Source: Bdellovibrionota bacterium (GTDB lineage Bacteria; Bdellovibrionota_C; UBA2361; JAAYZI01). From it: DNA of 64,000 bases. Within the stretch, counting starts at the first letter, position 1; each line of letters begins with the position of its first letter. Position numbers and translations under genes: made by a program. The stretch spans positions 704,001 to 768,000 of the forward strand of contig JBMNIF010000002.1 in assembly GCA_050950765.1 (NCBI GenBank), written 5' to 3'. Below are positions 15,583 to 49,132 of this stretch, piece after piece. The notes under the pieces are model-generated. The model did no database searches. It was not told the DNA's origin and saw only the letters and a list, made by a program, of their open reading frames with translations.

Positions 15583-15587
15583 GTGCT

Positions 15588-17042: not shown

Positions 17043-17125
17043 AAAAGTATTGTTATTATGGCGGCTACTTTATTAGAAGATAGTGTGGTGCTAAAGGAGG
17101 CAAAAAATTTGGGTAGTGACTGTAA

Positions 17126-18553
17126 ATGGAATATGAAACAGTTATAGGTTTAGAGGTTCATATACAACTTTTAACGCAAAGTAAGGCTTTTAGTGCAGCT
17201 GCAGCGAGTTTTTGTATAAAACCGAATACGGAGGTTGATGAAGCTTCGTTAGGGTTAGCGGGGGCGCTCCCTGTTATAAACTCTAAGGTGTTACGTTATG
17301 CTATTATGTTGGGACTTGCTACGAAGTGTAGTATTAGAGAGGTGAGTCGTTTTGCTAGGAAACACTACTTTTATCCGGACCTCCCGAAGGGTTATCAGAT
17401 CTCGCAATTTGAGGAGCCTATCTGTGAAAATGGAGATCTTGTAATTAGATATAATGGAGAGGAGCGGGCGATCGGCATTCGTCGTATTCATATAGAGGAG
17501 GATGCTGGTAAGAATATTCATGATAAGGAGGGGGGAGTTTCACTCCTTGATTTTAATCGTGTTGGAGTACCACTCTTGGAGGTTGTTTCAGAACCTGACC
17601 TCTCAACCCCTGCAGAAGCTGCTGAATATTTAAGAACGCTTAGGCAGCTAGTGCGTTATCTTGCTATCAGTGACGGCAATATGGAGGAGGGGAGTTTACG
17701 GTGTGATGCCAATATCTCTCTTCGTCCTAAAGGTGAAAAAAAATTCGGAGTAAGAACCGAGATAAAAAACGTTAATTCATTCCGTTTTGTTGAAAAGGCT
17801 TTGGAGTATGAAGTTTTAAGGCAGAGAGGTATCCTTGAAAAGGGTGGTGTTGTAAAGCAGGAGACACGTTGGTTTGATAGTGTCACCTCTAAAACTTATC
17901 CGTTACGGAGTAAGGAGGAGGCTGCTGATTATCGTTATATGATAGACCCTGATCTACCACCATTAAAGGTTTCAGAAGAGTTTATTTCTCAAGTCCTTGC
18001 TGAATTACCACAACTGCCGCAGGAGTATCTGGAGTTATTAACTAAAGAGCACGGCTTAAGTGAGTATGATGCCGCTTTACTTACGAGTGAGAAGGGGATC
18101 GTTCGTTATTATCAAGATGTTGTGGCAAGTTGTCATAATCCGAAAGTAGCTTGTAACTGGATTACGGGAGAGCTTTTTGCGTTACTTAAGAAAAACGGTT
18201 TGGAGATAGAGGGTTCTCCTATCTCTGCAGCGCACTTAGGAGAGTTAATCTTATTAGTGGAGAGGGGGGAGATTAGTGGAAAAACGGCTAAGTTTGTTTT
18301 TGAAGAGATGGCGCAAAGTGGAGAATCTCCAGAAAGTATCGTTACAAAAAAAGGTTTGCGGCAGATCACTAACACACTTGAACTGCAAGAGATCGTGCAG
18401 GGAGTTTTAGAGGAGAATCCTCGTCAATGGGCAGAGTATAGAGCAGGTAGTGAGAAGCTTCTTACGTTTTTTATTGGACTTGTTTTGCGTGCCTGTAAAG
18501 GGCGTGCCAATCCAGAGGTGGTGAAAAAAATGTTGCAAGATTTGGCTAAATAA
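17126..18553 (+). CDS. gatB: Amidotransferase subunit B
   Basis: IGLEVH, RKHYFYPDLPKGYQISQ, HIEEDAGK, EGSLRCDANIS and RSKEEAADYRY motifs. Confidence 0.96.
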   Translation: MEYETVIGLEVHIQLLTQSKAFSAAAASFCIKPNTEVDEASLGLAGALPVINSKVLRYAIMLGLATKCSIREVSRFARKHYFYPDLPKGYQISQFEEPICENGDLVIRYNGEERAIGIRRIHIEEDAGKNIHDKEGGVSLLDFNRVGVPLLEVVSEPDLSTPAEAAEYLRTLRQLVRYLAISDGNMEEGSLRCDANISLRPKGEKKFGVRTEIKNVNSFRFVEKALEYEVLRQRGILEKGGVVKQETRWFDSVTSKTYPLRSKEEAADYRYMIDPDLPPLKVSEEFISQVLAELPQLPQEYLELLTKEHGLSEYDAALLTSEKGIVRYYQDVVASCHNPKVACNWITGELFALLKKNGLEIEGSPISAAHLGELILLVERGEISGKTAKFVFEEMAQSGESPESIVTKKGLRQITNTLELQEIVQGVLEENPRQWAEYRAGSEKLLTFFIGLVLRACKGRANPEVVKKMLQDLAK

Positions 18554-18790
18554 ACACGTATCTTCTATTATTTCACGTTGAGAAAAACGCTTCCAGACTT
18601 GTTTTTAGTAGATTAAATAGGTAGATACGTCTTAGGAAAAGAGAGTTTTTACTCAAACTTACGAGCTTTTTGGAGTTTTTAGCTAAAAGCTTTTAAAAAC
18701 TGCCTTAACTTGGAAGTAGGAAAAAGGAGTTTTACTCCTCTTATTATTCTTTAAGAAAGCCTGTCTCTATGGGGGAGGTGGGTAGATAGC

Positions 18791-19108
18791 TTGGAAGAGC
18801 CTTACACGATGCCGCTTGATGTTGTGGAAATAACCGCTGTTGATGATGAAACTTCTGTTATATGTTTAGAGTTACCACCGTCTAAGGTGGTTATCTTACA
18901 AGGGGCTTTTGAGCTATTGGAGGGGATCGGCATATTAAGGACTCTCGATACTGAGAGAGCTTTAATCTGTGTGATTACCACACCGAGTCTTGTGCGGGAG
19001 TGCGTGGATGTGCTTAATGCGTTACAAGAGGCGGTGTTATGGCGCGTTGCAGAGGTGCCGCCAGATGTAACATTTCTAGGTGATTTTGAGAAGGATTGTT
19101 ATGATTAA
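18791..19108 (+). CDS. DUF4911-like small protein
   Basis: FELLEGIGILRTLD motif. TTG start after GGAGGT; an alternative ATG lies at 18809. Confidence 0.55.
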   Translation: MEEPYTMPLDVVEITAVDDETSVICLELPPSKVVILQGAFELLEGIGILRTLDTERALICVITTPSLVRECVDVLNALQEAVLWRVAEVPPDVTFLGDFEKDCYD

Positions 19109-21005
19109 GCTTATTCGTAAGCATATGAAGTCTGTTGCTTTTACTACTATTTCATTAGTGATCGCTTTTTCTATGACGGGGTTCGGTGTTGGTCTTTATA
19201 GGGGTGCCAACCGTGATTATGTTGCTCGTATTGATGGTCATGACATCTCCAGAGAAGACCTGCGGAAGTTGAGAAATGATCTGGAAGAGCGGTATCGCGC
19301 AGCTTGGGGTAACTATTACGATCAGTTAGCTGAATTAACCAAGTTAGATCTTGAAAAAGAGGCACGAGAAAATATTGTGCCGATCTATCTTGTAAATCGA
19401 GCTGCTACTGATATGGGGCTAGCCATCGGAAGGTACGGTCTAAACAAAAAAATCAATGAGATGTTCGGTGGAAAACTTAATAGTGAACTTTATAGGAGCT
19501 TCTTACAGCAAAGACGACAGACCGCACCGATGTTTGAGGCAGAGGTGCGACAGAAGGCAGTTTCAGAGCAGTTGCGTGATATCATTGCAGAGCTCAGTTT
19601 TGCTTCAAAGGCGGAAGCGTTGGCGTTACTTGCGCAGGAAGAAACAACTTTTCAAGTTAAATATCTTGAATTTGATCCAGAAGCTTTTGTCTCAAAGGTG
19701 ACTGAACCTTCAGAGGAAGAGCTTAAGGAGTATTATGATAATAATGCCGCCGAATATGAGAAAGAGGAGCAAAGCGCTTATAAATTTATACCTTTTGAAC
19801 CTAACAAGATGCTCGATCTTGTTGAAATTGCACCTGAAGATGTTGAGATGTATTACACTGATAATGAAGGTGAATTTACCATTCAAGATAGCGCTAAGAT
19901 TCACCTGATAAAGTTGGAATCTTCTAAGGATGATGATCCTGAAAAAGCTGCTGCCAATAAAGATGAAACAAGGCTGAAAGCAGAAAAAATTTATGGTGCT
20001 GCAACAGGTGGAGAAGATTTTGCGAAGTTAGTTAAGTTATACTCCACTGATGAAGCGACTAAAGAAAAAGGCGGAGAGGTTGGTTTAGTTACGCAAGGCG
20101 ATCAAAGTTTGCCGAAGCAGTTAATGAAAGTAATATTTAATTTTGCTGCTGATGGTATCGCAGATGTGGTTGAAGTTGGAGATGCTTTTTATATTGTAAA
20201 AATTTCAGAGTTTAAAAAAGGTGGTTTAACGCCTTTAGAAGAGGTTCAAGAGCAGATCGTTACATTCTTAAAGAAAAGGGAAGCTCCAGCTTGGATTAAT
20301 GAACACGCTTATGCTCTCTTTGATGCTTGGAGAGCGAGTAAAAAAACATTAGAAGAGTTTGCTACTGAAAAATCTTTAGTTGTAAAAGATAGTGGTGGAT
20401 TGTTAATTAAAGATAAAGATCCTGAAGGAGCATTTTCGGGGCTAACAGCAGCAGTGCTAAAACTAAAAGATCAAGAGAAAGTTGCTGTGGTTGAAGTTGG
20501 TAACAACCTTGCTTTAGTTGAGGTCTCTGAGTTTAAAGATGCCTACATTCAAGATTATGCTGAGGTGGCGGAGGTTGTTAAAGGTGGTGTTATAAAACAG
20601 AAGAGCATTAAACTTGCAGAGGAAGCGGCAAAGGGGGTTATCTCCTCTTTTGCTGAAGAAAAGGTTACTGATTTAGCACAAGCAGCTACTCCGTATGGGG
20701 TAAAGGTTAAAGAGGAAAAAGATTTAAAGCGGGGATCTTTAAAAGCTCCGTTTACAGATACTGCTATGCAGGAAGCTCTTTTAAACACCTATCAAGCGCT
20801 TAAAGCACCGCAGACCTTTTATGTAGCTTCTGGGAAGTATTATATTTTTCAAGTAAGCGCAATTCAGAAGCCTGATCTATCTACTGTAACTCCTGAAAAA
20901 CTTGCAGAGTATCGTGAGAAAGCTACCGAGAGAAACGGTGAAGAGGTGATGAATGTTATGGTAAAAAAATTGAAACTCTCTTCTGAAATAGATGAGAGGA
21001 TGTAG
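19101..21005 (+). CDS. ppiD: PpiD-type periplasmic chaperone / parvulin peptidyl-prolyl isomerase
   Basis: N-terminal TM, SurA-N-like region, and parvulin GEDFAKLVKLYSTD..TKEKGGEVG. About 635 aa. Confidence 0.8.
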   Translation: MIKLIRKHMKSVAFTTISLVIAFSMTGFGVGLYRGANRDYVARIDGHDISREDLRKLRNDLEERYRAAWGNYYDQLAELTKLDLEKEARENIVPIYLVNRAATDMGLAIGRYGLNKKINEMFGGKLNSELYRSFLQQRRQTAPMFEAEVRQKAVSEQLRDIIAELSFASKAEALALLAQEETTFQVKYLEFDPEAFVSKVTEPSEEELKEYYDNNAAEYEKEEQSAYKFIPFEPNKMLDLVEIAPEDVEMYYTDNEGEFTIQDSAKIHLIKLESSKDDDPEKAAANKDETRLKAEKIYGAATGGEDFAKLVKLYSTDEATKEKGGEVGLVTQGDQSLPKQLMKVIFNFAADGIADVVEVGDAFYIVKISEFKKGGLTPLEEVQEQIVTFLKKREAPAWINEHAYALFDAWRASKKTLEEFATEKSLVVKDSGGLLIKDKDPEGAFSGLTAAVLKLKDQEKVAVVEVGNNLALVEVSEFKDAYIQDYAEVAEVVKGGVIKQKSIKLAEEAAKGVISSFAEEKVTDLAQAATPYGVKVKEEKDLKRGSLKAPFTDTAMQEALLNTYQALKAPQTFYVASGKYYIFQVSAIQKPDLSTVTPEKLAEYREKATERNGEEVMNVMVKKLKLSSEIDERM

Positions 21006-27044: not shown

Positions 27045-28106
27045 ATGGATATTACGCAACTTTTAAAATTTGCTTATCAACAAGATGCATCAGATCTGCA
27101 CATCAGTGCGGGAGAGTCTCCTATGGTGCGTCTTAACGGTGATATGAAAAAATTGAAAGTTCCCGAGCTTACTCCAGAAGTGACACACGCCATGATTTAC
27201 GACATTCTTGGTGATTCGCAAAGAAAAACTTTTGAAGAGTTTAATGATGTTGATTTCGCCATGCAGATCGGAGATATCGCACGTTTTCGTGTTAATGTTT
27301 TTAGGCAACAACGTGGTGTAGCAGCGGTATTTAGAAGGATTCCGACTAAAATTTTAACATTGCAGGAACTTGGTATGCCGGAGATCCTTTCTGAAATTAC
27401 GAGACGCGAGAAAGGCTTAATCTTAGTAACAGGTCCAACAGGGAGTGGTAAATCTACAACTTTGGCAGCTATGCTCGATCAGGTGAATAATGAGAGAGAA
27501 GGGCATATTTTAACGGTAGAAGACCCGATTGAGTTCGTTCATCATTCAAAGAAGTGTCTTGTAAATCAACGTGAAGTTGGTGCTCATGCCAACGGTTTTG
27601 CGCGAGCTTTGCGCGCAGCATTGCGTGAAGACCCTGATTATATCCTCGTTGGAGAGTTAAGAGACTTGGAAACGATTCAGTTGGCGTTAACTGCAGCTGA
27701 AACAGGACACTTGGTTTTTGGTACGTTACACACTTCGAGTGCTCCGAAAACAGTTGATCGTGTTATTGATGTTTTTCCGCCGGAGCAACAAGCACAAGTT
27801 AGGGCGATGTTTGCAGAATCAATTCAAGGTGTAATTACACAAACTTTGTGTAAAAAAATTGGAGGCGGGCGTGTGGCGGCTTTAGAGATATTACTTGGTA
27901 CAACAGCTATTAGAAACTTGATCAGAGAGGCAAAGATTCATCAGATCCCTAGTATGATGCAAACCTCACAAGGGATCGGGATGCAGACTTTGGAGATGCA
28001 CCTTCTAGATCTGGTAAGTGAGGGAATTATCAGTAAGGAAACTGCTATTGAAAAGACAGGTAATGCGCAGATGTTTAAAGAGTTTGAAGATAACGGGATG
28101 TTGTAA
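27045..28106 (+). CDS. pilT: Type IV pilus retraction ATPase PilT
   Basis: ASDLH, GPTGSGKS, EDPIE, LREDPD, AETGH, TLH, AIRNLIRE and GMQT motifs. Confidence 0.95.
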   Translation: MDITQLLKFAYQQDASDLHISAGESPMVRLNGDMKKLKVPELTPEVTHAMIYDILGDSQRKTFEEFNDVDFAMQIGDIARFRVNVFRQQRGVAAVFRRIPTKILTLQELGMPEILSEITRREKGLILVTGPTGSGKSTTLAAMLDQVNNEREGHILTVEDPIEFVHHSKKCLVNQREVGAHANGFARALRAALREDPDYILVGELRDLETIQLALTAAETGHLVFGTLHTSSAPKTVDRVIDVFPPEQQAQVRAMFAESIQGVITQTLCKKIGGGRVAALEILLGTTAIRNLIREAKIHQIPSMMQTSQGIGMQTLEMHLLDLVSEGIISKETAIEKTGNAQMFKEFEDNGML

Positions 28107-28182
28107 AAGTAAATTTGTTAAAAATATAAGATAGGAAAATTATTTTTAATTCAAGACGCCGTTTTTTGTAGGAGTTGATCTT

Positions 28183-29346
28183 ATGTTGGATGCAACAAAG
28201 TTATTAAGTGTAATGGTTGAGCACGATGCTTCGGATCTCTATCTGACCGTTGATAGTGCGCCGATGTATCGGATCAATGGGGTGGTGCGTCCCGCAGGTA
28301 GTCAGAAGCTTACTGCGTTGGATACAGAAGCGATCGCTAATAGTATTATGAACGATAAACAACAGGCGCAGTTTGAAGGGGAAAATGAACAGAATCTCGC
28401 ACTATATTATTCAACACTTGGACGTTTTAGGGTGAATATCTTTAAGCAGCGTGGGGTGGTTGGTATAGTTTTTAGGCAGATTAGATCAAACATCCTTTCA
28501 ATTGATGACTTGGCGTTACCGCAAGTTTTAAAAGATGTGGCGTTAAGTAAACGTGGCTTAGTTTTGGTAGTTGGAGCAACGGGAAGTGGTAAATCAACGA
28601 CATTAGCTGCAATTATCGATTATAGGAATGCCAATACCTCAGGGCATATCGTAACGATTGAAGATCCGATTGAGTTTGTGCATGAACATAAAAAATGTAT
28701 CGTTACGCAACGTGAGATCGGGATGGACACCGAAAGTTATTCCGTAGCTTTAAAGAATGCCTTACGGCAAGCACCAGATGTGATTCTGATAGGTGAGATT
28801 CGAGATCTGGAAACTATGGAAGCAGCGATCGCCTTTGCGGAGACGGGGCACCTCTGTTTAGCGACGTTGCACAGTAATAACGCTAATCAGGCTATGGAGA
28901 GGATTATGAATTTCTTTCCGGCAGAACGGCATAAACAGATCTATTTACAATTAAGTTTAAACTTACGTGGTATCGTCAGCCAGAGACTCATTCCGACGGT
29001 AAATGAAGGACGTGTGGCAGCAGTAGAGATCTTACTGGATAGCCCCCGCGTAAAAGATCTAATTCACAAAGAGAAGATTGATGAGATTAAAGATGCTATG
29101 GAAAAATCAACTAATCTCGGGATGCAGACCTTTGATCAACACCTTTTTGAATTATATAGTGCAGGGCAGATTACACACGAGGCAGCTCTTAGAAATGCAG
29201 ATTCTGCTAACAACTTACGTTTAAAAATCAAACTTGCTGAAAAGGGTGGCTTCGAAAAAGAGGAGCCGCAAGCATTTAACACCTCTGAAAAGATGACCAC
29301 TCCTCTTAGTGACGATGAGGAAGAGCCGTTACAGATAGAATTTTAA
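28183..29346 (+). CDS. pilU: Type IV pilus ATPase PilU
   Basis: ASDLY, GATGSGKS, LRQAPD, TLHSNNANQA and ADSANNLRL motifs. Directly follows pilT. Confidence 0.9.
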   Translation: MLDATKLLSVMVEHDASDLYLTVDSAPMYRINGVVRPAGSQKLTALDTEAIANSIMNDKQQAQFEGENEQNLALYYSTLGRFRVNIFKQRGVVGIVFRQIRSNILSIDDLALPQVLKDVALSKRGLVLVVGATGSGKSTTLAAIIDYRNANTSGHIVTIEDPIEFVHEHKKCIVTQREIGMDTESYSVALKNALRQAPDVILIGEIRDLETMEAAIAFAETGHLCLATLHSNNANQAMERIMNFFPAERHKQIYLQLSLNLRGIVSQRLIPTVNEGRVAAVEILLDSPRVKDLIHKEKIDEIKDAMEKSTNLGMQTFDQHLFELYSAGQITHEAALRNADSANNLRLKIKLAEKGGFEKEEPQAFNTSEKMTTPLSDDEEEPLQIEF

Positions 29347-29564
29347 TGTAGAAAGGCGAGCCGGATCTTATAACCAACAAAAGCTATACTCTTAGAGTGA
29401 GTGGTTCGCCAGAAGATGGCGGAGGTGAAAAAACCTTTTCAAGATATATTTAACGCCTCTTAAAATATCTCAATGTAATTAAAATCTAGTGTAAATAAAT
29501 TCAGTATGTTAAAGGAAGGTATCCTTTTCTTTTTTGTTTTGAATCTGTTTTTTATTGAGCAAAG

Positions 29565-30371
29565 ATGAACGGTGTTGAACACGCTACTGCCGGTATTTTA
29601 ATATTGATGGTTCTGTTTGTTGCACCCCTTCTGGTTTATATCAGAAAAGCGCGACAAGGAAAAAAGTTCTATGTGCGCAGGGTGGCAGGCATTGATGCTG
29701 TTGATGAGGCTGTGGGGCGTGCCGCAGAATTGGGCAGACCCATCTCTTTTTGTTCCGGTATAACTACAGTTAGCCCCGTGCTTTATGCCTGTTTAGGTGT
29801 GCTATTTCATATCGGGCGTAAGGCAGCACAATATAAGTCAAAGTTACTCCTTCCGCAGATATATCCTGATGTAATGGCTATCGCTGAAGATACCGTTAGA
29901 GATGCTTATCGTGAAGAAGGTAGGTTAAGCATCTTTGATCCGTCAAATATACAATTCCTTTCGGATGAACAGTTTGCTTTTGCCGCTGGTTATAGCGGTA
30001 TCGTACAGAGAGAAAAAGTTGCAGCAGCTTTTTTGTTTGGAGAGTTTGCTGCTGAATCTCTTGTCTTAGCGGAAGCGGGGCAGGCTGTTGGTGCTATGCA
30101 GGTAGCAGCTAGTGTCAGCCCTGAACAGGTGCCGTTTTTTATCTGTACCTGTGACTATACCTTGATAGGTGAAGAGCTTTATGCAGCATCTGCTTATTTA
30201 ACACGTGAGCCGGTGCAGGTCGGTAGTCTACTTGGGCAAGATAAAGCCAAGTTGCTCTTTTTTATTTTAATTATTATCGGTGTTGTGTTGGCAACACTCT
30301 CTTCTATCTATCCGCACCTTCAGATTAAAAATATTGATCACTATATCTTGTTAAATTGGGGTGAGTTGTAA
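29565..30371 (+). CDS. Uncharacterised membrane protein, DUF6754-like
   Basis: RRVAGIDAVDEAVGRAAELGRP, QFAFA, AESLVLAEAG, QVPFF..CDYTLIGEELYAASAYL motifs, with TMs at both ends. Confidence 0.7.
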   Translation: MNGVEHATAGILILMVLFVAPLLVYIRKARQGKKFYVRRVAGIDAVDEAVGRAAELGRPISFCSGITTVSPVLYACLGVLFHIGRKAAQYKSKLLLPQIYPDVMAIAEDTVRDAYREEGRLSIFDPSNIQFLSDEQFAFAAGYSGIVQREKVAAAFLFGEFAAESLVLAEAGQAVGAMQVAASVSPEQVPFFICTCDYTLIGEELYAASAYLTREPVQVGSLLGQDKAKLLFFILIIIGVVLATLSSIYPHLQIKNIDHYILLNWGEL

Positions 30372-31407
30372 CGTGAATTACCGTAAGACACTGATAAAAA
30401 TCGTAACATTTTTAGGTGGAATTTATTTCTTTTTAGAGTTCGTTCTGCCTGAAAAGATAGGGGGTGTTTCAATAAACGTTTATCACGATCAGATTTCATT
30501 AGGATTCGTGGCTGTGGGGGTGATGGCACTGGGACTGGGCTTGATTAACCTTCTAGCAGTGCACGGTTCAAAGCTACTCTTTAAAAAGAAAGGGTGGCTT
30601 TATAGCGCCGCTTTATTAGGCGGACTCTTTTCAATGACAATTATTATGATTTTTGATTGGGCAAGAAGTGCTGAAAACGCTAGCTATACAGAGAAGGTGC
30701 TTAATCTACGTGATTTTACCAATGTTATCGTAAGTGATGCAGCTTCAAATAAAGAAGGTGTGCCGCCAAAAGAAGTTCGGACTGAGGCTTTAGTTGGCGC
30801 TGTAAAAGAGGTGCTGCTAGAAGTAGAGGCTTCACTGCTGCAAGTAGAGGACTTAAAACTTCACTCTGCTGAAGTTTATAAGAAGTCTCGTCCAACTGTT
30901 AAATCTACACGGGAAACGATCGTTGCAATTCATCATCTTTTGGAAGGTGCGCAAGATCGTAGCGATGTTTGGTATACGACTATGGCAACAACTCTTGGAG
31001 AATTGGCAGCGAGTTGGGGTGATCTCCTTAATATGGAGTATGAAGTTTCTGCACCTAAACAATGGTACAACCTGTTATATGAAGGACTCTTCTTTCCACT
31101 CGGTGCCGCCATGTTTTCTTTACTCGGTTTCTATATTGCAGCTGCTGCTTATCGAGCTTTTAGGGTGCGTTCTGCCGAATCTGCTTTAATGATGTTAGCT
31201 GCTGTAATCGTGATGCTCGGGCAGATCCCGTTCGGGATCTGGATTTGGGAAGAGTTGCCGGAGGTGCGCTCTTGGTTGCTAAGTGTTCCTAGTACGGCAG
31301 CATTTAGAGCTATTGAGATAGGAGCTTCTGTTGGTGGCTTAGTGATGGCATTTAGAATGTGGCTTTCTATTGAGTCTGAATCCTTTAGTAAGGGAAAGGA
31401 GAGGTAG
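30361..31407 (+). CDS. Uncharacterised polytopic membrane protein
   Basis: Three N-terminal TMs, a helical soluble insert, then MFSLLGFYIAAAAYRAFRVRSAES and GQIPFG. GTG start overlaps the upstream gene. Confidence 0.7.
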   Translation: MSCNVNYRKTLIKIVTFLGGIYFFLEFVLPEKIGGVSINVYHDQISLGFVAVGVMALGLGLINLLAVHGSKLLFKKKGWLYSAALLGGLFSMTIIMIFDWARSAENASYTEKVLNLRDFTNVIVSDAASNKEGVPPKEVRTEALVGAVKEVLLEVEASLLQVEDLKLHSAEVYKKSRPTVKSTRETIVAIHHLLEGAQDRSDVWYTTMATTLGELAASWGDLLNMEYEVSAPKQWYNLLYEGLFFPLGAAMFSLLGFYIAAAAYRAFRVRSAESALMMLAAVIVMLGQIPFGIWIWEELPEVRSWLLSVPSTAAFRAIEIGASVGGLVMAFRMWLSIESESFSKGKER

Positions 31408-31413
31408 AAGATC

Positions 31414-32274
31414 ATGTTACTGCAACGACGTCTCATATATATCTTTGTTTTGCTTGCACTCTCTCTACCTTTAATTTTTGAATACAGTAGTCCGCCTGCA
31501 CGTATGCCTGCGGCAGAGGCTGCTTTTAAAAGTGTGGAGGATTTAAAAGTTGCAACGGGAGAGATCGCTTTTGTAGCTCTTGATTTTGGACCATCAACAA
31601 AAGCTGAAAACGAATCACAGGCGTTAGTTTTAATTGAGCATTTAATGCGTAAAAGGATCCCGTTCGCCCTTTTTTCTTATTACTTTCAGGCAGAACCGTT
31701 TTTAACTTCTATCCCTGAACAGGTCGTAAATAAACTTGAAAAAGAGTATCCCGATCAGGTTTGGCGTTATGGTCATGATTGGGTCAATCTCGGATATCGA
31801 CCAGGTGCGGGAATGTTAATTCAAGCCATTCCGAAAAGTGAAAACTTGGTTCAGCTTTTTAAAAAGGATGCGCGTGGTAATAGCTTAGAACATATCCCTG
31901 CTTTTTCAAAAGTGCGCACAATTAAAGATATTAAGTTACTACTGGAGATCACAAGTTTAACCGGTGTTTTTGATGTTTATATACAGTATTTTCAAGCAGG
32001 AAAATATAAGCCTCCCTTTATTCATGGTGCTACCTCTATCAGTGTTCCAGGGGTTTTTATTTACCTAGATTCCGGTCAACTTAATGGACTTTTAGAGGGC
32101 ATCTCCGGAGCTGCTTGGTATTCGGAGCTACTTTCAAAAAAATATAAGGATAGAGCTGTTGATTCAGCGCAGGTGCTTAATACCTCCTTAGGAATTGCAC
32201 ATCTGGTGATAATCTTTTTAATTCTACTCGGCAACGTTGTTGCATTCGTTGAATTGTATAGGAGGCGTCAATGA
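31414..32274 (+). CDS. Uncharacterised membrane-anchored protein with an extracytoplasmic alpha/beta domain
   Basis: RRLIY + TM, DFGPSTKAE, YGHDWVNLGYRPG, SGQLNGLLEG..GAA.Y and a C-terminal TM (HLVIIFLILLGN). Confidence 0.7.
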   Translation: MLLQRRLIYIFVLLALSLPLIFEYSSPPARMPAAEAAFKSVEDLKVATGEIAFVALDFGPSTKAENESQALVLIEHLMRKRIPFALFSYYFQAEPFLTSIPEQVVNKLEKEYPDQVWRYGHDWVNLGYRPGAGMLIQAIPKSENLVQLFKKDARGNSLEHIPAFSKVRTIKDIKLLLEITSLTGVFDVYIQYFQAGKYKPPFIHGATSISVPGVFIYLDSGQLNGLLEGISGAAWYSELLSKKYKDRAVDSAQVLNTSLGIAHLVIIFLILLGNVVAFVELYRRRQ

Positions 32275-32987
32275 TTGCTGTCGATTATTGGAATGTGTTG
32301 GTGGTGATAGTGGCAGGTTTTGCCACCTTAGCTATCTTTAGCTTGCTGATTAAAGAAAATCCCGTTTATAGGTTTGTTGAACACCTTTATATCGGTATCG
32401 CTGCGGGGTTGGGGATTATTTTAAGTATTAAAACTTTTTTGTGGCGGCAACTATTACAGCCGATGCTGGGGCTTGATATTGTGCAGTATCCTGACGGAAC
32501 TTTTTCAAAAGAATATAATTCGTTGTTGCTGTTATATATATTACCGATGCTCTTTGGGCTTCTGTATTACTTTATCTATTCAAAAAAATATTCATGGTTA
32601 GCTAAAATAGTAATCGGTTTTTCTCTCGGTATGAGTGGTGGATTGGCGTTCAAAGGCTTTTTTAATAAAATTATGCCGCAAATCAGTAGTAGTTTTAAGC
32701 CGCTCGTGGTGCTAAAAGATGGCGCTTTAGATTATTGGCAGAGTTTAGAAAACTGCATCTTCGTTTTTACCCTTTTGATAGTGATGTATTATTTCTTTTT
32801 CTCTTTTAAACATCGTAAGTTGGGAAGGGGAGTTTCAATCTCAGGACGGTGGCTTTTAATGATCTGTTTTGGAGCTTTCTTCGGTTCTACGGTAATGGCA
32901 CGTTTATCGTTGTTAGTTGAACGTTTGCAATTTTTATTAGGACCGTGGGCTAGTGTTTTAAAAGATGCAGTCGGGGTGTGGTTCTAA
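32271..32987 (+). CDS. Uncharacterised polytopic membrane protein
   Basis: TLAIFS...ENPVYRFVEHLYIG and GRWLLMICFGAFFGSTVMARLSLL motifs, about 6 TMs. ATGA overlap with the upstream gene. Confidence 0.7.
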   Translation: MIAVDYWNVLVVIVAGFATLAIFSLLIKENPVYRFVEHLYIGIAAGLGIILSIKTFLWRQLLQPMLGLDIVQYPDGTFSKEYNSLLLLYILPMLFGLLYYFIYSKKYSWLAKIVIGFSLGMSGGLAFKGFFNKIMPQISSSFKPLVVLKDGALDYWQSLENCIFVFTLLIVMYYFFFSFKHRKLGRGVSISGRWLLMICFGAFFGSTVMARLSLLVERLQFLLGPWASVLKDAVGVWF

Positions 32988-33004
32988 AAAATTATTATTA
33001 AAAT

Positions 33005-34861
33005 ATGAAGACTAAAGCCGATGAAATAAAGGTAGTGTTAGTAACTGATTGTGGTTCTACCACTACAAAAGCACTTCTCTTTGAGGATATTGACGGAGTT
33101 TGGCAACAAACTTTTCGTGGTGAAGCTCCTACAACAGTAGAAGACCCCGTAGCGGATGTAACAGTTGGTGCAAGAAATGCTTTTAAGGAGATCGAAGAAT
33201 TAAGTGGTAGAAAAATTTTATCTGAGACTTCTTCTGATTCTCCTTTCCTTGAAAATAACGGTTATGGTGATGGCATAGACCTCTATCTTTCGACTAGCTC
33301 TGCTGGTGGGGGCTTGCAAATGATAGTGGCAGGTGTCGTGCAATACATGACGACAGAATCTGCAGAGAGGGCGGCTTTAGGTGCAGGCGCTATCGTGATG
33401 GATACTATATCGGCAGATGACGGACGTGAAGATCATGAAAAGATAGAGAAGATTCGTCATTTACGTCCTGATATTGTGCTTCTAACAGGTGGAGTTGATT
33501 CAGGATCAAAGGTACACGTTATTGAAACTGCTGAAATATTGAGAGCGGCACAGCCGCGCCCCCGTTTTGGAAAAACTTTAAAACTTCCCGTTATTTTTGC
33601 AGGTAATAAAGATGCAGCAGTAGAGGTTAAAGAGATCTTAGCTCAGATTGCCGATGTTTCATGCGTAGAAAATGTGCGTCCGACTTTGGAAATGGAGAAC
33701 TTAGCTCCTGCTCGCGCTGCTATTCATGAATATTTTTTATCGCATGTAATGAGTCATTCTCCAGGCTATGACAAATTATTGCGCTGGACTCCCGTTCCGA
33801 TTATGCCGACCCCTGCTGCAGTCGGAAATATGATTCAGAGCTACGCAGAAAGTGAAGACTTACAGGTGCTGTGCGTTGATATCGGTGGTGCTACAACTGA
33901 TGTTTTTAGCGTTTTTAAAGATCTAAGTGGTGTGCCTGTTTTTAATCGTACCGTTTCTGCCAATTTAGGGATGAGTTATTCGATAGCAAATGTTTTGATC
34001 GAGGCTGGCGGAAAAAATATCGGGCGGTGGTTGTGTTCTGAGGTGAGTGAAACAGAGATTCACGATCGTCTAAGAAATAAGATGATTCGTCCGACCACTA
34101 TTCCTCAAACGTTGGAGGATCTGTGGTTGGAGCAGGCAGTTTGTAGGGAAGCGTTACGACTTTCTTTGCGACATCATAGGTCTCTAGCAGTGGGGTTAAG
34201 TGGTTTAAAAAAACAGAAGGGGATCGCAGATATCTTTTTGCAACATGAAAACCGTTATGAATTAGTGAATATGATGAAGCTGGATCTGATAATAGGTTCA
34301 GGCGGAGTCTTAAGCCATGCTCCGAATCGGATGGAAGCTGCTCTGATGTTGCTGGATGGCTTTAAGCCGGAAGGGCTGACGGAGATAGCGGTTGATTCCA
34401 TCTTTATGATGCCGCATCTGGGAGTGTTTGCTACGTTACATCCGCAAGCAGCGCGAGAGATCTTTGTAAATAATTGTTTAGTGCGGATCTGTCATGCGGT
34501 TGTGCCGGTTTATTCAGGCAAGAGAGTAAAGGGTAGTTCTTTAGCACGAATTTTTTGGAACTCCGAGCCGGTAGCTGAAGTAAAAGTTGGAGAGGTGACG
34601 TGCCTTACTATGAATCAAGAAAAAGGGGTATTGCGGATTGAGCCTTTTGATAGGCGTGTTGATGTAGGAAGTGGTACGGGAAAAATTTTAGAAAGAGAGA
34701 TTACACTTAATCCTCATGGATTACTTCTTGATGGTAGAAATCGTCCGTTAATAATGCCTGAAGATCCTGCGGAAGCGTTAAGATTTGAGCAAGATATCTA
34801 CCGAAATCTCGGACTTCTTAAAGGGGATCTTCCTGAAGAATTAGTAACAGAGGAGGTTTGA
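33005..34861 (+). CDS. Glutamate mutase L (GlmL/MutL)-like ASKHA-fold ATPase
   Basis: Phosphate-1 TDCGSTTTK, SSAGGGL, AGN, phosphate-2 VDIGGATTDVFS, RTVSANLGM and GSGGVL motifs. Confidence 0.8.
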   Translation: MKTKADEIKVVLVTDCGSTTTKALLFEDIDGVWQQTFRGEAPTTVEDPVADVTVGARNAFKEIEELSGRKILSETSSDSPFLENNGYGDGIDLYLSTSSAGGGLQMIVAGVVQYMTTESAERAALGAGAIVMDTISADDGREDHEKIEKIRHLRPDIVLLTGGVDSGSKVHVIETAEILRAAQPRPRFGKTLKLPVIFAGNKDAAVEVKEILAQIADVSCVENVRPTLEMENLAPARAAIHEYFLSHVMSHSPGYDKLLRWTPVPIMPTPAAVGNMIQSYAESEDLQVLCVDIGGATTDVFSVFKDLSGVPVFNRTVSANLGMSYSIANVLIEAGGKNIGRWLCSEVSETEIHDRLRNKMIRPTTIPQTLEDLWLEQAVCREALRLSLRHHRSLAVGLSGLKKQKGIADIFLQHENRYELVNMMKLDLIIGSGGVLSHAPNRMEAALMLLDGFKPEGLTEIAVDSIFMMPHLGVFATLHPQAAREIFVNNCLVRICHAVVPVYSGKRVKGSSLARIFWNSEPVAEVKVGEVTCLTMNQEKGVLRIEPFDRRVDVGSGTGKILEREITLNPHGLLLDGRNRPLIMPEDPAEALRFEQDIYRNLGLLKGDLPEELVTEEV

Positions 34862-34862
34862 A

Positions 34863-35987
34863 ATGACACGAGCGTTTGCTCCTGGTTTGCAGATAAAGAG
34901 AAAAACAGTTGTCAGACGGTTGCGTGAATTGCCTGTAACGGGCGAGGTCTTGGTTGAAGTAGGACAATATGTAGAAGCAGATCAAGTTGTGGCACGTGCT
35001 TCTTTAGAAGGTGAGCTTTTTATTTTTAGAATTGCTGAACAACTTGGCATTGAAACGTTTGAAGTTGTTAATGGTCTTAAGGTTGCAGAAGGTGAAAAGA
35101 TTAAGAAGGGACAACTTATCTGTGAACATCGAGGACTTTTCGGATTGTTTAACAGTAGATACTTTGCACCAGAAGATGGTGTTGTAGAGTTTATCTCTAA
35201 GCGGACTGGACATCTCGGTGTGCGTGCGCCTAGCGAGATGTTGGATATTGAGGCGTATATTTCAGGGAGTGTGGTGGAGGTAGATGTAGGAAAATCTGTT
35301 TTGATAGAAACAGAAGCCTCCTTTATTCAAGGTATTTTCGGAGTTGGTGGAGAAAGACGGGGTGTTCTGAAATGTTTGTCCGTTCCGTTAGATCATGAAT
35401 TAACAGATCTTGATATTCCTGATGATTGCGCAGGAAGTGTGCTTGTTGGTGGCACCAAACCGCAGATCTCAGCCATTACTAAAGCAGCAGAACTTGGAGC
35501 TTGTGGTATCGTTACAGGCTCTATCGATGATCAAACTTTAAAAGCTTATTTAGGATACGATCTCGGCATTGCATTAACGGGAGATGAGCAGGTTCCTTTA
35601 ACGTTAATAGTAACGGAAGGTTTTGGTTTTATTCCGTTAGCTAAGCGCATTATGGAGATGTGCCGAGAGTTAGAAGGTAGTGCTGTTTCAATAAACGGAG
35701 CAACACAGGTTCGGGCGGGTGCTATGCGACCGGAGATAATTATACCGCGTGCAGGTAATGTTTGTAATTTTGAAGATCTTGATAGTCAGGATCTGGAGAA
35801 GGGGCTTACAGAGGGGGCGCGGGTGCGTTTGTTGCGAGTACCGTATTTTGGAAAACTTGCCACAGTTTTGGAGTTGCCGCAACAGAAGGAGAGGATTGAA
35901 ACGGGTGCTTATGCCCGTGTTTTAAGGGTAAAGATCGACCACGCTAGTGTGGTGACGATACCGCGAGCTAATGTAGAGTTGCTTTAG
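34863..35987 (+). CDS. Conserved hypothetical protein with barrel-sandwich-hybrid-like motifs and a KOW-like C-terminus
   Basis: GEVLVEVGQYV, VAEGEKIKKGQ, APEDGVV, IQGIFGVGGE, TEGFG, NGATQVRAG..RPE and GARVRLLRVPYFG motifs. Starts 2 bp after the GlmL-like stop. Confidence 0.7.
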   Translation: MTRAFAPGLQIKRKTVVRRLRELPVTGEVLVEVGQYVEADQVVARASLEGELFIFRIAEQLGIETFEVVNGLKVAEGEKIKKGQLICEHRGLFGLFNSRYFAPEDGVVEFISKRTGHLGVRAPSEMLDIEAYISGSVVEVDVGKSVLIETEASFIQGIFGVGGERRGVLKCLSVPLDHELTDLDIPDDCAGSVLVGGTKPQISAITKAAELGACGIVTGSIDDQTLKAYLGYDLGIALTGDEQVPLTLIVTEGFGFIPLAKRIMEMCRELEGSAVSINGATQVRAGAMRPEIIIPRAGNVCNFEDLDSQDLEKGLTEGARVRLLRVPYFGKLATVLELPQQKERIETGAYARVLRVKIDHASVVTIPRANVELL

Positions 35988-37186: not shown

Positions 37187-37218
37187 AGCGGTGTTTTTTC
37201 AGCACCGCTCTTGTTTTA
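37187..37218 (+). terminator. Intrinsic terminator
   Basis: AGCGGTG/CACCGCT stem followed by CTTGTTTT. Confidence 0.6.
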
Positions 37219-39315: not shown

Positions 39316-41400
39316 TCAGCGGAGCATCTTTGCTGCGAGAGTTCTAAAGTGAGCGACTGTTTCCTCTGTATCTTCAAATTCAGACTTTACCTTTGCTATT
39401 AAGGAAAAAGCATGAGCTAGATTTTCGCCATTACCATTAAAAGGATTTTTTTCCGTGAGCCCTGTTTTAACAAAATCAGCTTGCTTATTTTCATCGTTAG
39501 GGACTCCAAGTAGAAGAGCGATATTAAAACCGCAACAATATGCTTCGTTAAGAAGCTCCTCTTTTTGGGTAGTATCTTCTTTGTCAATCTCTTGTGTAGC
39601 TTTTGTATATAATAACTCTCCAAGGTTATATAAACATCTTCTATAATCAGTGGTTACTTTTGTATGTTTAACCATACCAGGAAGGCGCTCTGGAAATTGG
39701 TTATCTATGGTTCGTGTGGTGTCTGTTCCGAAAGTGTTGTGTAACACCGTGCGTAAAATTCCAATAGCAAGATTGTGTTGTCTTCTAGCTTCTTCTTCAG
39801 GATTTTCAAGAGGCAGTTTTTTCCCTCCTTTGCTGTTTCTGTATGTATCCAAAAGTTCCGGAGTTGTCTTTAAACAGGTAGTAGTTAGATCTAAGATCGT
39901 TTTCAGATCATTTTTATTGCAGTAATAAGCACATTCTAAATATTTTTGAGCCAGCAATTTATCCTTGGATACTAAGCCTATCCAACGAAAAGCTTTCGAG
40001 ACGAATGCTCCAAGATTTTTCGGTACCTTTTGGGCGAATTCCTCAGGTGTGCTTGTTATAAGTTGTTTGTAACTCTTAAAGCCTACACTTTCTAGGATTT
40101 TCCAAGCAGAAGCATTGGCTTGTTTAAAATATTCCCTTTTTTTTGGATCGGTCTCCTCGGCATTACGATACGCCTCTCCGAAACCGATCAGGTTTTTAAA
40201 TTCATTTTGCAACTCCTCTTCCAGTTTTTGCATTCTAAATATTTTGATCCGGTTTGCAAGGTCGTTAAAGAAAACGGCAGTTTCTTCTGTGTCTTTAAAT
40301 ACAGACCTTATTTCTGCTATTAAGGAAAGAGCGTAAGCAAGATGCTTGCTTTTACCATTAAAAGGGTTTTCTTTTCCTAGTTCTTCCGTAATGAAATCAT
40401 TTAGTTTGCTAGAGTCGTTAGGAGCTCCAAGTAGAAGAGCAGTATTAACACCGCAGCAATATGCTTCATCAAGGAGAGACCTTCTTATTTCCAAGTAGTC
40501 TTGTTGAATTTCTTTTTGTGCTTTGTTAAGTAATAATTTTCCAAGATTGTTTAAACATTGTCTACAATACGCGTTTATTTTCATATCACCAAATATGTCT
40601 GGATCTATCTTTTCTATATCTGAAAATTGTTTATCTATGGTTTGTGTGGTGTCTATTTTGAAGGTATCGTTCAATGTTGTGCGTAAAATGTTAATAGCAA
40701 GTCTATGTTGCCTCCTGATTTCCTCTCCAATATCTCTAACATTTTTAAAACGTGGGTCTGTTTTGCCACGTTTTTTATATTCATCAAATTGATTTTTTGT
40801 TGTATTTGCATAGAGATCAGTTAGATTTAAGATCGTTTTTAAGTCATTTTTATTACAATAATAAGCGCATTCTAAAAATCTTGCAGCGTCCAGATAATAG
40901 TGTTGCCCCTGTGAGTTCTTGTAGGATAAGCCTATCCGATAGAAAGCTTCTGCAGCGAACTTCTTAAAATCATCCGGTATCTTTCTAGCGATTTTTTGAG
41001 GTCTGCTTTTTTTAATCTGTTGATAGTTTTTTATATCTAAAATCCTCAAAATTTTCCAAGCACAATCACTAGCTTGTTTAAAGCTTTTCTCCTTCATGAA
41101 ACTTGCCATGCGGGCAGATTCCTTTTTTAACTTCTTCAGTATCTGCTCTCTTGATTTTTTAGTAAGTTTTTCTTGTGACTTTTGTTGTTTTAGATCGTCT
41201 AGAATTCCTCGTAGTGGAGCAGCAGGAGCAGAAGATCCTTGTGATGTAGCAGAGCCAGAAGTAAAAAATGGTGTGTCTAAGTTTGAATCTCTTTTTGCGC
41301 TTGGATCTCTGTTTGTTTTTGGGGCAGTGGAAGAGTCGTTTTGCGGTGTTGCTCCTTTTGCGCTCGGATTTGTACCTTTTTCTAAGCTTTCGTACGTCAT
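39316..41400 (-). CDS. Orphan helical protein with a disordered N-terminus and two ~312-aa internal repeats
   Basis: 694-aa ORF. LECAYYCNKNDLKTIL, RRQH.LAI.ILRT.L, EAYCCG.N.ALLLG.PND, NPFNG and DTEET each occur twice, about 936 nt apart. Confidence 0.75.
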   Translation of the reverse strand: MTYESLEKGTNPSAKGATPQNDSSTAPKTNRDPSAKRDSNLDTPFFTSGSATSQGSSAPAAPLRGILDDLKQQKSQEKLTKKSREQILKKLKKESARMASFMKEKSFKQASDCAWKILRILDIKNYQQIKKSRPQKIARKIPDDFKKFAAEAFYRIGLSYKNSQGQHYYLDAARFLECAYYCNKNDLKTILNLTDLYANTTKNQFDEYKKRGKTDPRFKNVRDIGEEIRRQHRLAINILRTTLNDTFKIDTTQTIDKQFSDIEKIDPDIFGDMKINAYCRQCLNNLGKLLLNKAQKEIQQDYLEIRRSLLDEAYCCGVNTALLLGAPNDSSKLNDFITEELGKENPFNGKSKHLAYALSLIAEIRSVFKDTEETAVFFNDLANRIKIFRMQKLEEELQNEFKNLIGFGEAYRNAEETDPKKREYFKQANASAWKILESVGFKSYKQLITSTPEEFAQKVPKNLGAFVSKAFRWIGLVSKDKLLAQKYLECAYYCNKNDLKTILDLTTTCLKTTPELLDTYRNSKGGKKLPLENPEEEARRQHNLAIGILRTVLHNTFGTDTTRTIDNQFPERLPGMVKHTKVTTDYRRCLYNLGELLYTKATQEIDKEDTTQKEELLNEAYCCGFNIALLLGVPNDENKQADFVKTGLTEKNPFNGNGENLAHAFSLIAKVKSEFEDTEETVAHFRTLAAKMLR

Positions 41401-45866: not shown

Positions 45867-46137
45867 TTTTACTATACAAAATCTTCACCCCTTCGGAAAG
45901 GCGTTAAGTTGGAAAGCGCATCTGTCGATCTCTTAAGACAGTTCTTGTAGTGCCCTGAGTTTAAAGACTCAATTAGGGGATTTCTGTGTAAGAACCGAGA
46001 TAGAAGGCAAAACGGAACTTTAGGCTACGTTAAAGCATAGTTGTGCAGAGTGTCCCTGTTTTAAGTCCGTTTTTTAAGTATCTACTTTAAAGCGGGAGCA
46101 ATCTGCGGCTGTTCAGTTTTTGTTAAGGAGCGTGAAT

Positions 46138-47832
46138 ATGCAATCACGAGTTGGTGATCTGCTGGTTCGTGCGGGGTTGTTGACCGAAGATCAGTTAAAT
46201 AAAGCCAAAGAGTCACAAGCAGCTACGGGTGGGTTATTGGCTAGCGCCATCATTGCGCTTGGTGCGATCACTGAACAAGATTTCGCAGATCTTCTGAGTG
46301 AACATTATGCTGTGCCTATCGTTACCCTTGACGATTATCAGATTGAAGATAGTGCCGTAAACCTGATTCCGCAAAACCTTGCTACAAAGTACGGTTTAAT
46401 GCCAGTTTTAAAGGAACAGAGCACTTTAACCATAGCCATGATTGATCCGTCAAATGTTGTGGCATTAAACGATATAAAATTTATTACAGGCTTAGATGTT
46501 CGTGCAGTTATTGCACTTGAAAGTGATATCAAAGCAAAACAGGAAAAATATTACGAAGACCATATTTCATACAGCAGTATCATTGATGATATTGAAAGTG
46601 AAGACTTTGAAGTCGTTGCTAACAATGAAGAGCTTGATTTAAGAGAGCTTGAAAAGGCAACGGAGGATGCGCCTGTTGTAAAACTTGTTAACGCTATCTT
46701 GATGGATGCCATTAAGAAAGGTGCTTCCGATATTCATCTGGAGCCTTATGAAAAGGTATTTAGAGTTAGATTCCGTATCGATGGTGTGTTGTATGAAATT
46801 ATGAAACCTCCGATGAAGTTGAAGAATGCTATTACTTCACGCCTAAAAATTATGGCTGATCTCGACATTGCAGAACGGAGGTTACCACAAGATGGACGTA
46901 TTAAATTAAAGATCGGTTCTAATAAAGAGATGGATTTCCGTGTAAACGTTCTACCTACTTTATTTGGGGAGAAGGTAGTTTTACGTTTACTTGATAAGTC
47001 TAATTTGCAACTTGATATGACGAAGTTGGGCTTCTTTCCAGAACAGCTGGAGCATTTTAAAGATGCCATCAGTAAACCACACGGCATGGTGCTTGTAACG
47101 GGACCAACGGGTTCAGGTAAGACTACAACACTTTATTCGGCGCTAGCGGATCTAAATAAAGTAGGCACCAATATTAGTACAGCAGAAGATCCTGTTGAAT
47201 TTAATCTAACAGGTATTAATCAAGCTCAGATGCACGATGAGATCGGATTTAATTTTGCTTCAGCACTACGTGCATTTTTGCGACAAGATCCTGATGTAGT
47301 TATGGTTGGTGAGATTAGAGATTATGAAACTGCTGAAATAGGCATTAAAGCTTCCTTAACGGGTCACTTGGTGCTCTCAACGTTACATACTAATGACGCA
47401 CCATCGACTATTAGCCGTCTGTTAAATATGGGTGTGGAACCGTTTTTGGTAGCATCTTCCGTTAATCTAATTGTGGCGCAACGTTTAGCGCGACGTGTTT
47501 GTAGTCAGTGTGCACAGGAAGTGCACTTAAATCCTGAATTGTTGGTAAATATCGGTATCCCTGCGGAAGAGGCTAGGCATATTAAGGTAATGCAAGGGAG
47601 TGGTTGTGAAGCGTGTTCAGGGACGGGGTATAAAGGGCGTGTTGCTTTATACGAAGTGATGCCGATGATGGAGAGTATTAGAGAGTTAATCCTTAATGGT
47701 GCTTCTACAACAGAGCTAAAAAGGGAGTGTATCAAACAAGGTATGCTGACTTTAAGAGCTTCCGCTTTATTAAGATTAAAAGAAGGTATGACAAGTTTGG
47801 AGGAGGTTCTCCGTGTTACAGCAGCTGATTAA
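46138..47832 (+). CDS. pilB: Type IV pilus assembly ATPase PilB
   Basis: MshEN-like N-terminus, ASDIH, ERRLPQDGR, GPTGSGKT, LRQDPD and two CxxC motifs. ATG 46138 follows AAGGAG. Confidence 0.95.
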   Translation: MQSRVGDLLVRAGLLTEDQLNKAKESQAATGGLLASAIIALGAITEQDFADLLSEHYAVPIVTLDDYQIEDSAVNLIPQNLATKYGLMPVLKEQSTLTIAMIDPSNVVALNDIKFITGLDVRAVIALESDIKAKQEKYYEDHISYSSIIDDIESEDFEVVANNEELDLRELEKATEDAPVVKLVNAILMDAIKKGASDIHLEPYEKVFRVRFRIDGVLYEIMKPPMKLKNAITSRLKIMADLDIAERRLPQDGRIKLKIGSNKEMDFRVNVLPTLFGEKVVLRLLDKSNLQLDMTKLGFFPEQLEHFKDAISKPHGMVLVTGPTGSGKTTTLYSALADLNKVGTNISTAEDPVEFNLTGINQAQMHDEIGFNFASALRAFLRQDPDVVMVGEIRDYETAEIGIKASLTGHLVLSTLHTNDAPSTISRLLNMGVEPFLVASSVNLIVAQRLARRVCSQCAQEVHLNPELLVNIGIPAEEARHIKVMQGSGCEACSGTGYKGRVALYEVMPMMESIRELILNGASTTELKRECIKQGMLTLRASALLRLKEGMTSLEEVLRVTAAD

Positions 47833-47869
47833 GGCAGATTGTTTTTGTGTGAATTTGGAGAGGTAAAAA

Positions 47870-49087: not shown

Positions 49088-49132
49088 AAGATATTATTTG
49101 AAAGATATGAGTTTATAAAAGTTGTAGTTGAG

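Follow-up and report, generated by a model that had tools for sequence, protein, structure and literature searches.

What does a protein of the GlmL/MutL type do when the genes beside it encode membrane proteins? The question is raised by six genes, g1 to g6, on the forward strand at positions 29565-35987 of a 64-kb stretch of a Bdellovibrionota contig (JBMNIF010000002.1, positions 704,001 to 768,000), referred to here as the window. Judged from gene order and alignments, four statements are firmly supported: g1-g4 form a four-subunit membrane core; g5, the GlmL/MutL-type protein, and g6 act as one unit; the genetic link between the core and the g5-g6 pair outlasts rearrangement across phyla, with a small protein, C7, bridging the two; and, among the neighbouring genes scanned, nothing ties the system to glutamate mutase or to amino sugars. 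As to what the genes do, we regard it as an even call that they specify a conserved two-module envelope system, in which an ASKHA nucleotide switch acts on a novel inner-membrane translocation complex.

A membrane core and its linked gene pair

In the window, the core consists of the DUF6754 protein g1 (29565-30371, 268 aa), the polytopic membrane protein g2 (30361-31407, 348 aa), the membrane protein g3 (31414-32274, 286 aa), and a second polytopic protein, g4 (32271-32987, 238 aa). These are followed by g5 (33005-34861, 618 aa), a nucleotide-binding protein of the ASKHA fold, and by its soluble partner g6 (34863-35987, 374 aa). The genes overlap or nearly abut, with junctions of -11 bp (g1/g2), +6 (g2/g3), -4 (g3/g4), +17 (g4/g5), and +1 (g5/g6), which bears out the tight coupling described in an earlier note on this DNA (overlaps, or gaps of at most 17 bp).

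At least 641 stretches of a species-level genome set match the search pattern, and 638 of these are confirmed as g1 relatives. The best 80 of these loci form our synteny set, for which open reading frames (ORFs) were translated and queried with 13 proteins of the window. The same genes recur together in these 80 loci from many phyla, and so the six-gene layout is far beyond chance. The metagenome-assembled genomes that contribute them are labelled Binatia, Bdellovibrionales/Bdellovibrionota, Dadabacteria, Planctomycetota, Fermentibacteria/Aegiribacteria, WOR-3, Poribacteria, Zixibacteria, Eisenbacteria, Cloacimonadota, Stahlbacteria, Coatesbacteria, Ignavibacteria, and Rifleibacterium. Among the matches listed, g1 of the window is nearest to sequences labelled Bdellovibrionales/Oligoflexia.

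All four core genes are present in every locus that has at least 3 kb downstream of g1 (67/67). They are contiguous and keep their order in 56 of these loci; in most of the other 11, the membrane module is present twice or genes are inserted. The genes g5 and g6 are both found in 33 loci and are adjacent (<200 bp apart) in 28; g5 never occurs without g6, and the sole case of g6 without g5 is at a contig edge. The position of the pair varies: it follows the core in 19 loci and precedes it in 14, both of its genes are on the opposite strand to the core in L077, and in Zixibacteria-type loci it sits between two core copies. The loci with the pair downstream or upstream of the core belong to Binatia, Bdellovibrionota, Dadabacteria, Fermentibacteria, Eisenbacteria, Zixibacteria, Coatesbacteria, and Rifleibacterium. 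Where both flanks extend for 9 kb or more, the pair is present in 25 of 44 loci, and across phyla it adjoins the core in three or more gene orders.

These counts qualify the six-gene synteny for which the earlier note had proposed a search. The core is constant and the pair is near it in 25/44 loci, but there is no fixed six-gene block. Rather than a self-contained unit of six genes, we find a four-gene core, a g5-g6 pair that is often fused, and C7, which is absent here. Two further features of the loci can be added. Zixibacteria-type loci have the complete membrane module twice for one g5-g6 pair, the second DUF6754 gene being at 17363-18511 in L071 (within 9593-20015) and at 13224-14576 in L042 (within 9521-16770), and a DUF6134 protein is encoded between g5 and g6 in L062 and L071, and elsewhere in the locus in L063.

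C7 was found by clustering all ORFs of at least 110 aa in the 80 loci, together with searches using hidden Markov models (HMMs). It is a small protein of ~90-120 aa with the core motif PAIFFLE..KPL, present in 34/80 loci. In 19 of these (among L001-L018, L029, and L040) C7 lies immediately 5' of g1, and in the other 15 it lies immediately 5' of g5; the loci with C7 before g1 include nearly all of those sharing the gene order of the window, plus Planctomycetota. In one sequence (P0323), C7 is fused to the N-terminus of g5. Neither tblastn nor HMM searches find a credible C7 in the 64 kb of the window, the one marginal HMM match being 44 aa long and away from g1. The site that C7 occupies in same-order relatives is here a gap of 219 bp 5' of g1 (29347-29564), without an ORF and with stops in all three forward frames. 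C7 is lost or moved in the window.

In 11 loci (L020-L023, L031, L042, L055, L056, L069, L073, and L076), C7 is itself preceded by C10, a protein with two transmembrane segments. In all of these, the genes run in the order C10-C7-g5-g6-g1..g4 directly after gcvT-H-P1-P2 and on the same strand. Specifically, gcvP1 and gcvP2 are found in 11/11, gcvH in 10/11, and gcvT in 9/11, and a gene for lipoate-protein ligase (lplA) follows the cluster in 4 of the 11. This context may reflect a functional tie to glycine or one-carbon metabolism, or inherited gene order only.

The six proteins

The earlier note had called g1 DUF6754-like, and its match to PF20539 is indeed full-length (301.5 bits against a cut-off of 27, E 5e-90, profile positions 11-249 of 257). 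Hydropathy places transmembrane segments at residues 8-26 and 230-248, the latter C-terminal, separated by a stretch rich in lysine and arginine and ~200 hydrophilic residues. In other phyla, orthologues carry a signal peptide and an FN3-like domain (~110 aa) ahead of the first transmembrane segment, although the Pfam fn3 match is sub-threshold (21 vs 25). With this arrangement, the N-terminus of g1 is outside and the DUF6754 domain cytoplasmic. An AlphaFold2 model (mean predicted local distance difference test score, pLDDT, of 77) shows an alpha/beta, Rossmann-like domain with four parallel strands, in which the loop 167-185 is highly conserved yet modelled with low confidence. Foldseek searches of the PDB with this model return weak, generic Rossmann matches only (best E 0.012). 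The family is large, with at least 6586 clusters at 90% identity, and all named homologues are 'hypothetical'; identity across phyla is 44-71%.

The other three core proteins, g2, g3, and g4, match neither a Pfam nor an NCBIfam family, even when E values up to 10 are admitted. By hydropathy, each has several hydrophobic segments, in agreement with the earlier note, which had counted three further membrane proteins, one with a large extracytoplasmic domain. That domain belongs to g3, where two transmembrane segments (7-25 and 261-279) flank 235 hydrophilic residues. Since both termini are rich in lysine and arginine, this domain is probably extracytoplasmic, i.e. periplasmic, and by the same reasoning so is the hydrophilic insert of 144 aa (99-242) in g2. 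The latter protein has ~5 transmembrane segments, and its insert is missing in orthologues of ~207 aa. For g4, hydropathy indicates several transmembrane segments. Alignments reveal conserved residues in all three proteins: R265 and E338 are invariant in 40 orthologues of g2, N274 is invariant within the last transmembrane segment of g3, and the polar or charged residues N30, E37, H38, and R211 of g4 are conserved inside its transmembrane segments.

Searches of PDB sequences and of the Atlas leave the three proteins without a named relative. The profile of g2 has no significant match among PDB sequences (best E 0.22), and those of g3 and g4 have none. The Atlas model of g3 has a high predicted TM-score (pTM 0.89) and structural neighbours that are unnamed or 'hypothetical' only, and the Atlas structure search with g4 likewise returns unnamed clusters only. 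An hhalign comparison of g2 with g4 detects no relationship (probability 0.8%).

The match of g5 to Pfam MutL (PF13941) covers profile positions 1-449 of 450 at 414.1 bits (cut-off 27). The protein misses three narrower models, namely the GlmL equivalog NF040745 (222.5 bits vs 475), the GlmL-related ornithine degradation protein Or-4, NF040744 (220.2 vs 600), and the GlmL subfamily TIGR01319, or glmL_fam (180 vs 204.05). On profile scores, g5 is thus placed in the PF13941 superfamily and outside the GlmL and Or-4 equivalogs and the TIGR01319 subfamily. The nucleotide motifs that the earlier note had described as intact, DCGSTTTK (15-22), DIGGATTD (292-299), and GSGG (431-434), occur in g5 and do not vary among 28 orthologues, such that the phosphate-1, phosphate-2, and adenosine motifs of the ASKHA fold are all present and conserved at the sequence level. 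A conserved C-terminal extension of ~128 aa includes the invariant residues C491, P547, D576, R578, R580, and P581. Identity across phyla is 50-68%, and the g5 profile has no relative among PDB sequences.

Among representatives at 50% identity, g5 has 2519 relatives at E <=0.001, and sub-matches to Hydantoinase_A (PF01968) are seen in relatives of g5. Two relatives carry N-terminal DNA-binding domains of the helix-turn-helix (HTH) kind: GntR is fused to g5 in P0340 (703 aa), and an XRE-type HTH_3 is fused to g5-g6 in P0402 (1015 aa). These fusions suggest that, in transcription factors, the ASKHA unit can take the part of a sensor or effector domain. As a side observation, P0295 (1304 aa) and P0298 (1332 aa) have ~700 extra N-terminal residues on g5, consisting of bacterial TSP3 repeats in the former and a Peptidase_M1 domain in the latter, which may be gene-calling fusions.

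The last protein, g6, has no transmembrane segment by hydropathy. Its AlphaFold2 model (pLDDT 85.5) comprises an all-beta, barrel-sandwich-hybrid part (residues 1-171), a small alpha/beta domain (~190-295), and an SH3/KOW-like barrel (~320-373), which fits the soluble protein with hybrid-motif segments of the earlier note. Matches to Pfam are sub-threshold (Biotin_lipoyl 21.2/22.1, RnfC_N 19.4/25.6, NQRA_N 12.6/25, and KOW). Foldseek against the PDB returns domain-level matches only (TM-score to the query <=0.24), including domain II of Thermotoga maritima NusG, the SI3 hybrid barrels of RNA polymerase, the periplasmic adaptor BesA, RraA- and PA-like domains, and the KOW domain of Spt5. Profile searches of PDB sequences give nothing significant for g6, with a weak lipoyl-domain match at E 0.22. 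We rejected g6 as a lipoyl or biotin carrier, because no lysine is invariant or nearly so across 30 g6 sequences and the position of GDK in the E2p lipoyl domain is PGE in the aligned g6. The family has invariant polar motifs of its own (QGIFGVGGE, TEGFG, and GATQ.RAG..RPE).

The g6 family has more than ~6,500 clusters at 90% identity, and its longer members point to the partner. Specifically, 42 of 45 longer relatives are fusions of at least 950 aa that read g5 and then g6, and 2 are truncated forms of that fusion. Conversely, among the best 150 of the 2519 representatives of g5, 52 include the g6 region and 63 are unfused and keep the C-terminal extension. Some database records label fused relatives 'glutamate mutase L'. 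In a single sequence (P0279, 707 aa), g6 reads into a protein with a signal peptide, FN3, a transmembrane segment, and DUF6754; such a g6-g1 fusion is topologically feasible, but may be a read-through, a lost stop, or a gene-calling artefact.

Competing accounts of the system

How might the two modules work together? In our proposal, g1-g4 would be a four-subunit inner-membrane complex, the Rossmann-like DUF6754 domain of g1 being its sole sizeable part on the cytoplasmic side, and g3, the g2 insert, and, in other phyla, the FN3-like domain of g1 forming its periplasmic face. The second module would be a single cytoplasmic, nucleotide-dependent unit, i.e. g5 with its family-specific C-terminal domain bound to g6, which C7 would accompany in relatives (34/80 loci). 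The g5-g6 unit would bind and hydrolyse ATP, and thereby remodel, gate, or energise the membrane complex instead of a B12-dependent mutase; the complex in turn would move or handle a substrate at the inner membrane or in the periplasm, and nothing indicates that this substrate is an amino sugar.

The proposal of ATP binding and hydrolysis follows from the invariance of the ASKHA motifs, while that of an action on the membrane core follows from the analogy with GlmL/MutL, described as an ATP-dependent chaperone that reactivates glutamate mutase (PMC4682846). The likeness consists in the shared Pfam family (PF13941) and the same ASKHA nucleotide motifs, and g5 may likewise remodel a partner protein in an ATP-dependent manner. 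Docking of the modules, ATP hydrolysis, and transport are what we infer on these grounds. A bolder version, which we consider doubtful, makes the genes a new class of membrane machine whose cycle is driven by the ASKHA ATPase g5-g6, rather than by a P-loop, P-type, or rotary one; the two modules would then be tethered via C7 or DUF6754, and the machine would be conserved for a central task of the envelope across 14 or more phyla or classes, most of them uncultured.

Several findings weigh against our proposal. In 19/44 loci (Poribacteria, WOR-3, Planctomycetota, and others), the core has no pair within ~10 kb, one g5-g6 pair accompanies two membrane modules in some loci, and the window itself is without C7. 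The fusions to GntR and XRE-type HTH (P0340 and P0402) suggest a ligand sensor or enzyme role that is independent of the membrane, and no fold or sequence match in the PDB, Foldseek, or Atlas searches marks any membrane subunit as a transporter. The ATP-driven membrane machine of the earlier note stands in part: the ASKHA pair is genetically linked to the core, but the transport role is one we infer, and the HTH fusions suit a sensor or switch about as well as a motor.

The absence of the pair from 19/44 loci, the occurrence of two cores per pair, and the HTH fusions make a sensor, enzyme, or regulator role a serious rival. In this account, which we regard as possible if on the unlikely side, g5-g6 would be a cytoplasmic enzyme of the hydantoinase/oxoprolinase kind or a metabolite sensor, its link to g1-g4 would be no more than metabolic or regulatory, and g1-g4 would be a secondary transporter or channel for a compound that g5-g6 converts, traps, or senses. 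The Hydantoinase_A sub-matches among g5 relatives, the polar motifs of g6, and the GntR+g5 and HTH_3+g5+g6 fusions, which resemble enzyme-repressor or sensor proteins, all point in this direction. The gcv genes 5' of 11 loci and lplA 3' of 4 make a glycine or one-carbon substrate conceivable there, but this context is found in only 11/80 loci, probably of related lineages, and is absent from the window. Neither g5 nor g6 reaches the cut-off of a small-molecule enzyme family, and an Rfam search of the window and seven loci finds nothing, hence no riboswitch that would hint at a ligand. Strict pairing of g5 with g6 and the bridging by C7 suit a protein-protein machine at least equally. Another account, quite improbable in our estimation, sees an envelope scaffold or morphogenetic complex that organises periplasmic activities rather than transport. 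The ASKHA proteins of PilM-PilN-PilO and MreB-MreC-MreD-RodZ, as well as FtsA, dock on membrane complexes, and the HTH of RodZ binds MreB. In such a scaffold, the ASKHA protein would dock on, or polymerise at, bitopic or polytopic membrane partners. The architecture is similar in general terms (a cytoplasmic ASKHA protein, small polytopic or bitopic partners, and a protein with a periplasmic domain); the periplasmic FN3-like domain of g1 orthologues fits as well, and the XRE-type HTH on g5-g6 brings the RodZ domain to mind. However, g5 belongs to the GlmL/hydantoinase branch of ASKHA proteins rather than to that of actin and FtsA, in our searches g1-g4 resemble MreC/D, RodZ, or PilN/O neither in sequence nor in fold, and the adjacent pilT genes recur in only 2/80 loci.

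Two simpler accounts fare worse. It is very improbable that g1-g4 and g5-g6 are functionally unrelated and held together by inherited gene order. The pair is missing from the flanks of the core in 19/44 loci, and docking of the modules is itself part of our proposal; yet their adjacency outlasts rearrangement in different phyla (downstream, upstream, divergent, and between two cores), C7 alternates between g1 and g5 and can be fused to g5, and P0279 reads from g6 into g1, this being a single sequence and possibly an artefact. Barely credible is the account in which g5 is an ordinary GlmL reactivase for a glutamate or ornithine mutase encoded elsewhere, its adjacency to membrane genes being incidental. 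The strong PF13941 match and the 'glutamate mutase L' label on some fused relatives would agree with it, and our view of this genome extends over 64 kb only. Against this, g5 falls below the GlmL, Or-4, and glmL_fam cut-offs, carries a conserved extra C-terminal domain, always occurs with g6 and is often fused to it, and lies beside the DUF6754 genes across several phyla, in more than one gene order. Furthermore, no mutase or B12-binding domain is found among the 42 ORFs of the window that were scanned (13 + 29), as the earlier note had remarked, or among representatives of the 40 commonest ORF clusters of the 80 loci. Together with the recurrence in these loci, this supports a conserved system without ties to glutamate mutase.

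Set against GlmL, g5 is under half of the equivalog cut-off, has 618 aa where the profile has 459 positions, carries the extra C-terminal domain, and has g6 as an obligatory partner or fusion; its neighbours are membrane genes, and glmS/glmE are not beside it. The resemblance to the branch of Or-4 (NF040744) and hydantoinase A/oxoprolinase (PF01968) consists of the 220 bits of g5 to Or-4 and the Hydantoinase_A sub-matches in its relatives, but g5 is far under the cut-off of 600, and no partner of the aminomutase or HyuB type is found in the window or the loci. For g6, a likeness to NqrA and RnfC is seen in the homologue P0227, which scores above the cut-offs (RnfC_N 33.4/25.6, NQRA_N 25.5/25), and, as with NqrA, g6 is a soluble protein encoded alongside membrane subunits. 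However, the match is to ~60 residues of g6, and its alpha/beta domain, its KOW-like barrel, and g1-g4 are dissimilar; flavin and Fe-S motifs are absent, and no other Nqr/Rnf family is found in the six proteins.

The KOW-like C-terminal barrel of g6 and its hybrid barrels, similar to domain II of NusG, recall NusG, but Pfam detects no NGN-domain family in g6 or its homologues and g6 aligns to T. maritima NusG with a global TM-score of 0.15; the 'NusG' label that one source puts on some g6 homologues is probably a mis-annotation. The systems of PilM, MreB, and FtsA differ in the ASKHA branch of the nucleotide-binding protein, and g1-g4 have no detectable similarity to their membrane partners. 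Unlike ABC and other P-loop transporters, none of the six proteins matches a P-loop or permease family. Profile searches of PDB sequences find no solved relative for any of the six, and the membrane proteins match no characterised complex in Pfam, NCBIfam, PDB, and fold searches, as the earlier note had supposed. In full-text literature, we found no paper on DUF6754/PF20539, PF13941, TIGR01319, or glmL_fam, and nothing relevant on GlmL, membrane, and ASKHA in combination. By its composition, the system matches no known kind; it is in this sense that we call it new, its function being proposed by analogy.

A complex so widespread and conserved probably serves a basic need of the envelope or of bioenergetics in lineages that resist easy cultivation. 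Under our proposal, the large 'orphan GlmL' branch of ASKHA proteins would also acquire a setting outside B12-dependent mutases. Despite this breadth, the six proteins have no solved relative, and three are without a family name.

Neighbouring genes in the window

On the 5' side, the cluster is preceded by mfd (- strand) and two pilT genes. On the 3' side, Pfam and NCBIfam scans identify a SIS-domain gene, a PIG-L deacetylase, and a HAD-IIA hydrolase. From these downstream genes, the earlier note had proposed amino sugars as a possible substrate, which we rejected because homologues of the SIS, PIG-L, and HAD genes recur in 0/80 loci. In the window, the SIS gene may nevertheless share a transcript with the cluster, even if it is no constant companion of it elsewhere, given that the gene, at 36023, is separated from g6 by 35 bp and that the best terminator-like hairpin of the region (37187-37209) lies 3' of the SIS gene, not after g6. 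Counts from a promoter and terminator scan of the region are no higher than in shuffled sequence. Searches with the PADLOC-DB 2.0 defence models leave five of the six proteins without a match at E <=0.01 and give a single match for g4 (E 0.0085), which is at chance level; no defence system is identified.

Type IV pilus genes flank the cluster at 27045-29346 and 46120-51121, and encode two PilT/PilU ATPases, a PilB-type ATPase with MshEN, PilC, and a fusion of a PilS-like protein with a sigma-54 activator. We rejected the idea that the cluster is tied to type IV pili by way of the neighbouring pilT pair, as this pair recurs in 2/80 loci; mfd recurs in 1/80.

Four further ORFs of the window (632-740 aa) are, at the thresholds applied, without a Pfam family (3852-6074, -; 39316-41400, -; 54372-56306, +; and 58264-60162, +), and the one of 694 aa has no NCBIfam family either. 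A Bat/MoxR-type operon at 56326-62789 encodes a MoxR AAA+ ATPase, a DUF58 protein, an unnamed ORF of 632 aa, and a VWA/GATase1-like protein. Finally, a row of genes at 8196-12710 encodes an ABC ATPase, an ABC-2 permease, an ABC_transp_aux/DUF4350 protein, and a DUF4340 protein, and resembles in its arrangement a gliding-associated transporter of the GldA/F/G type.

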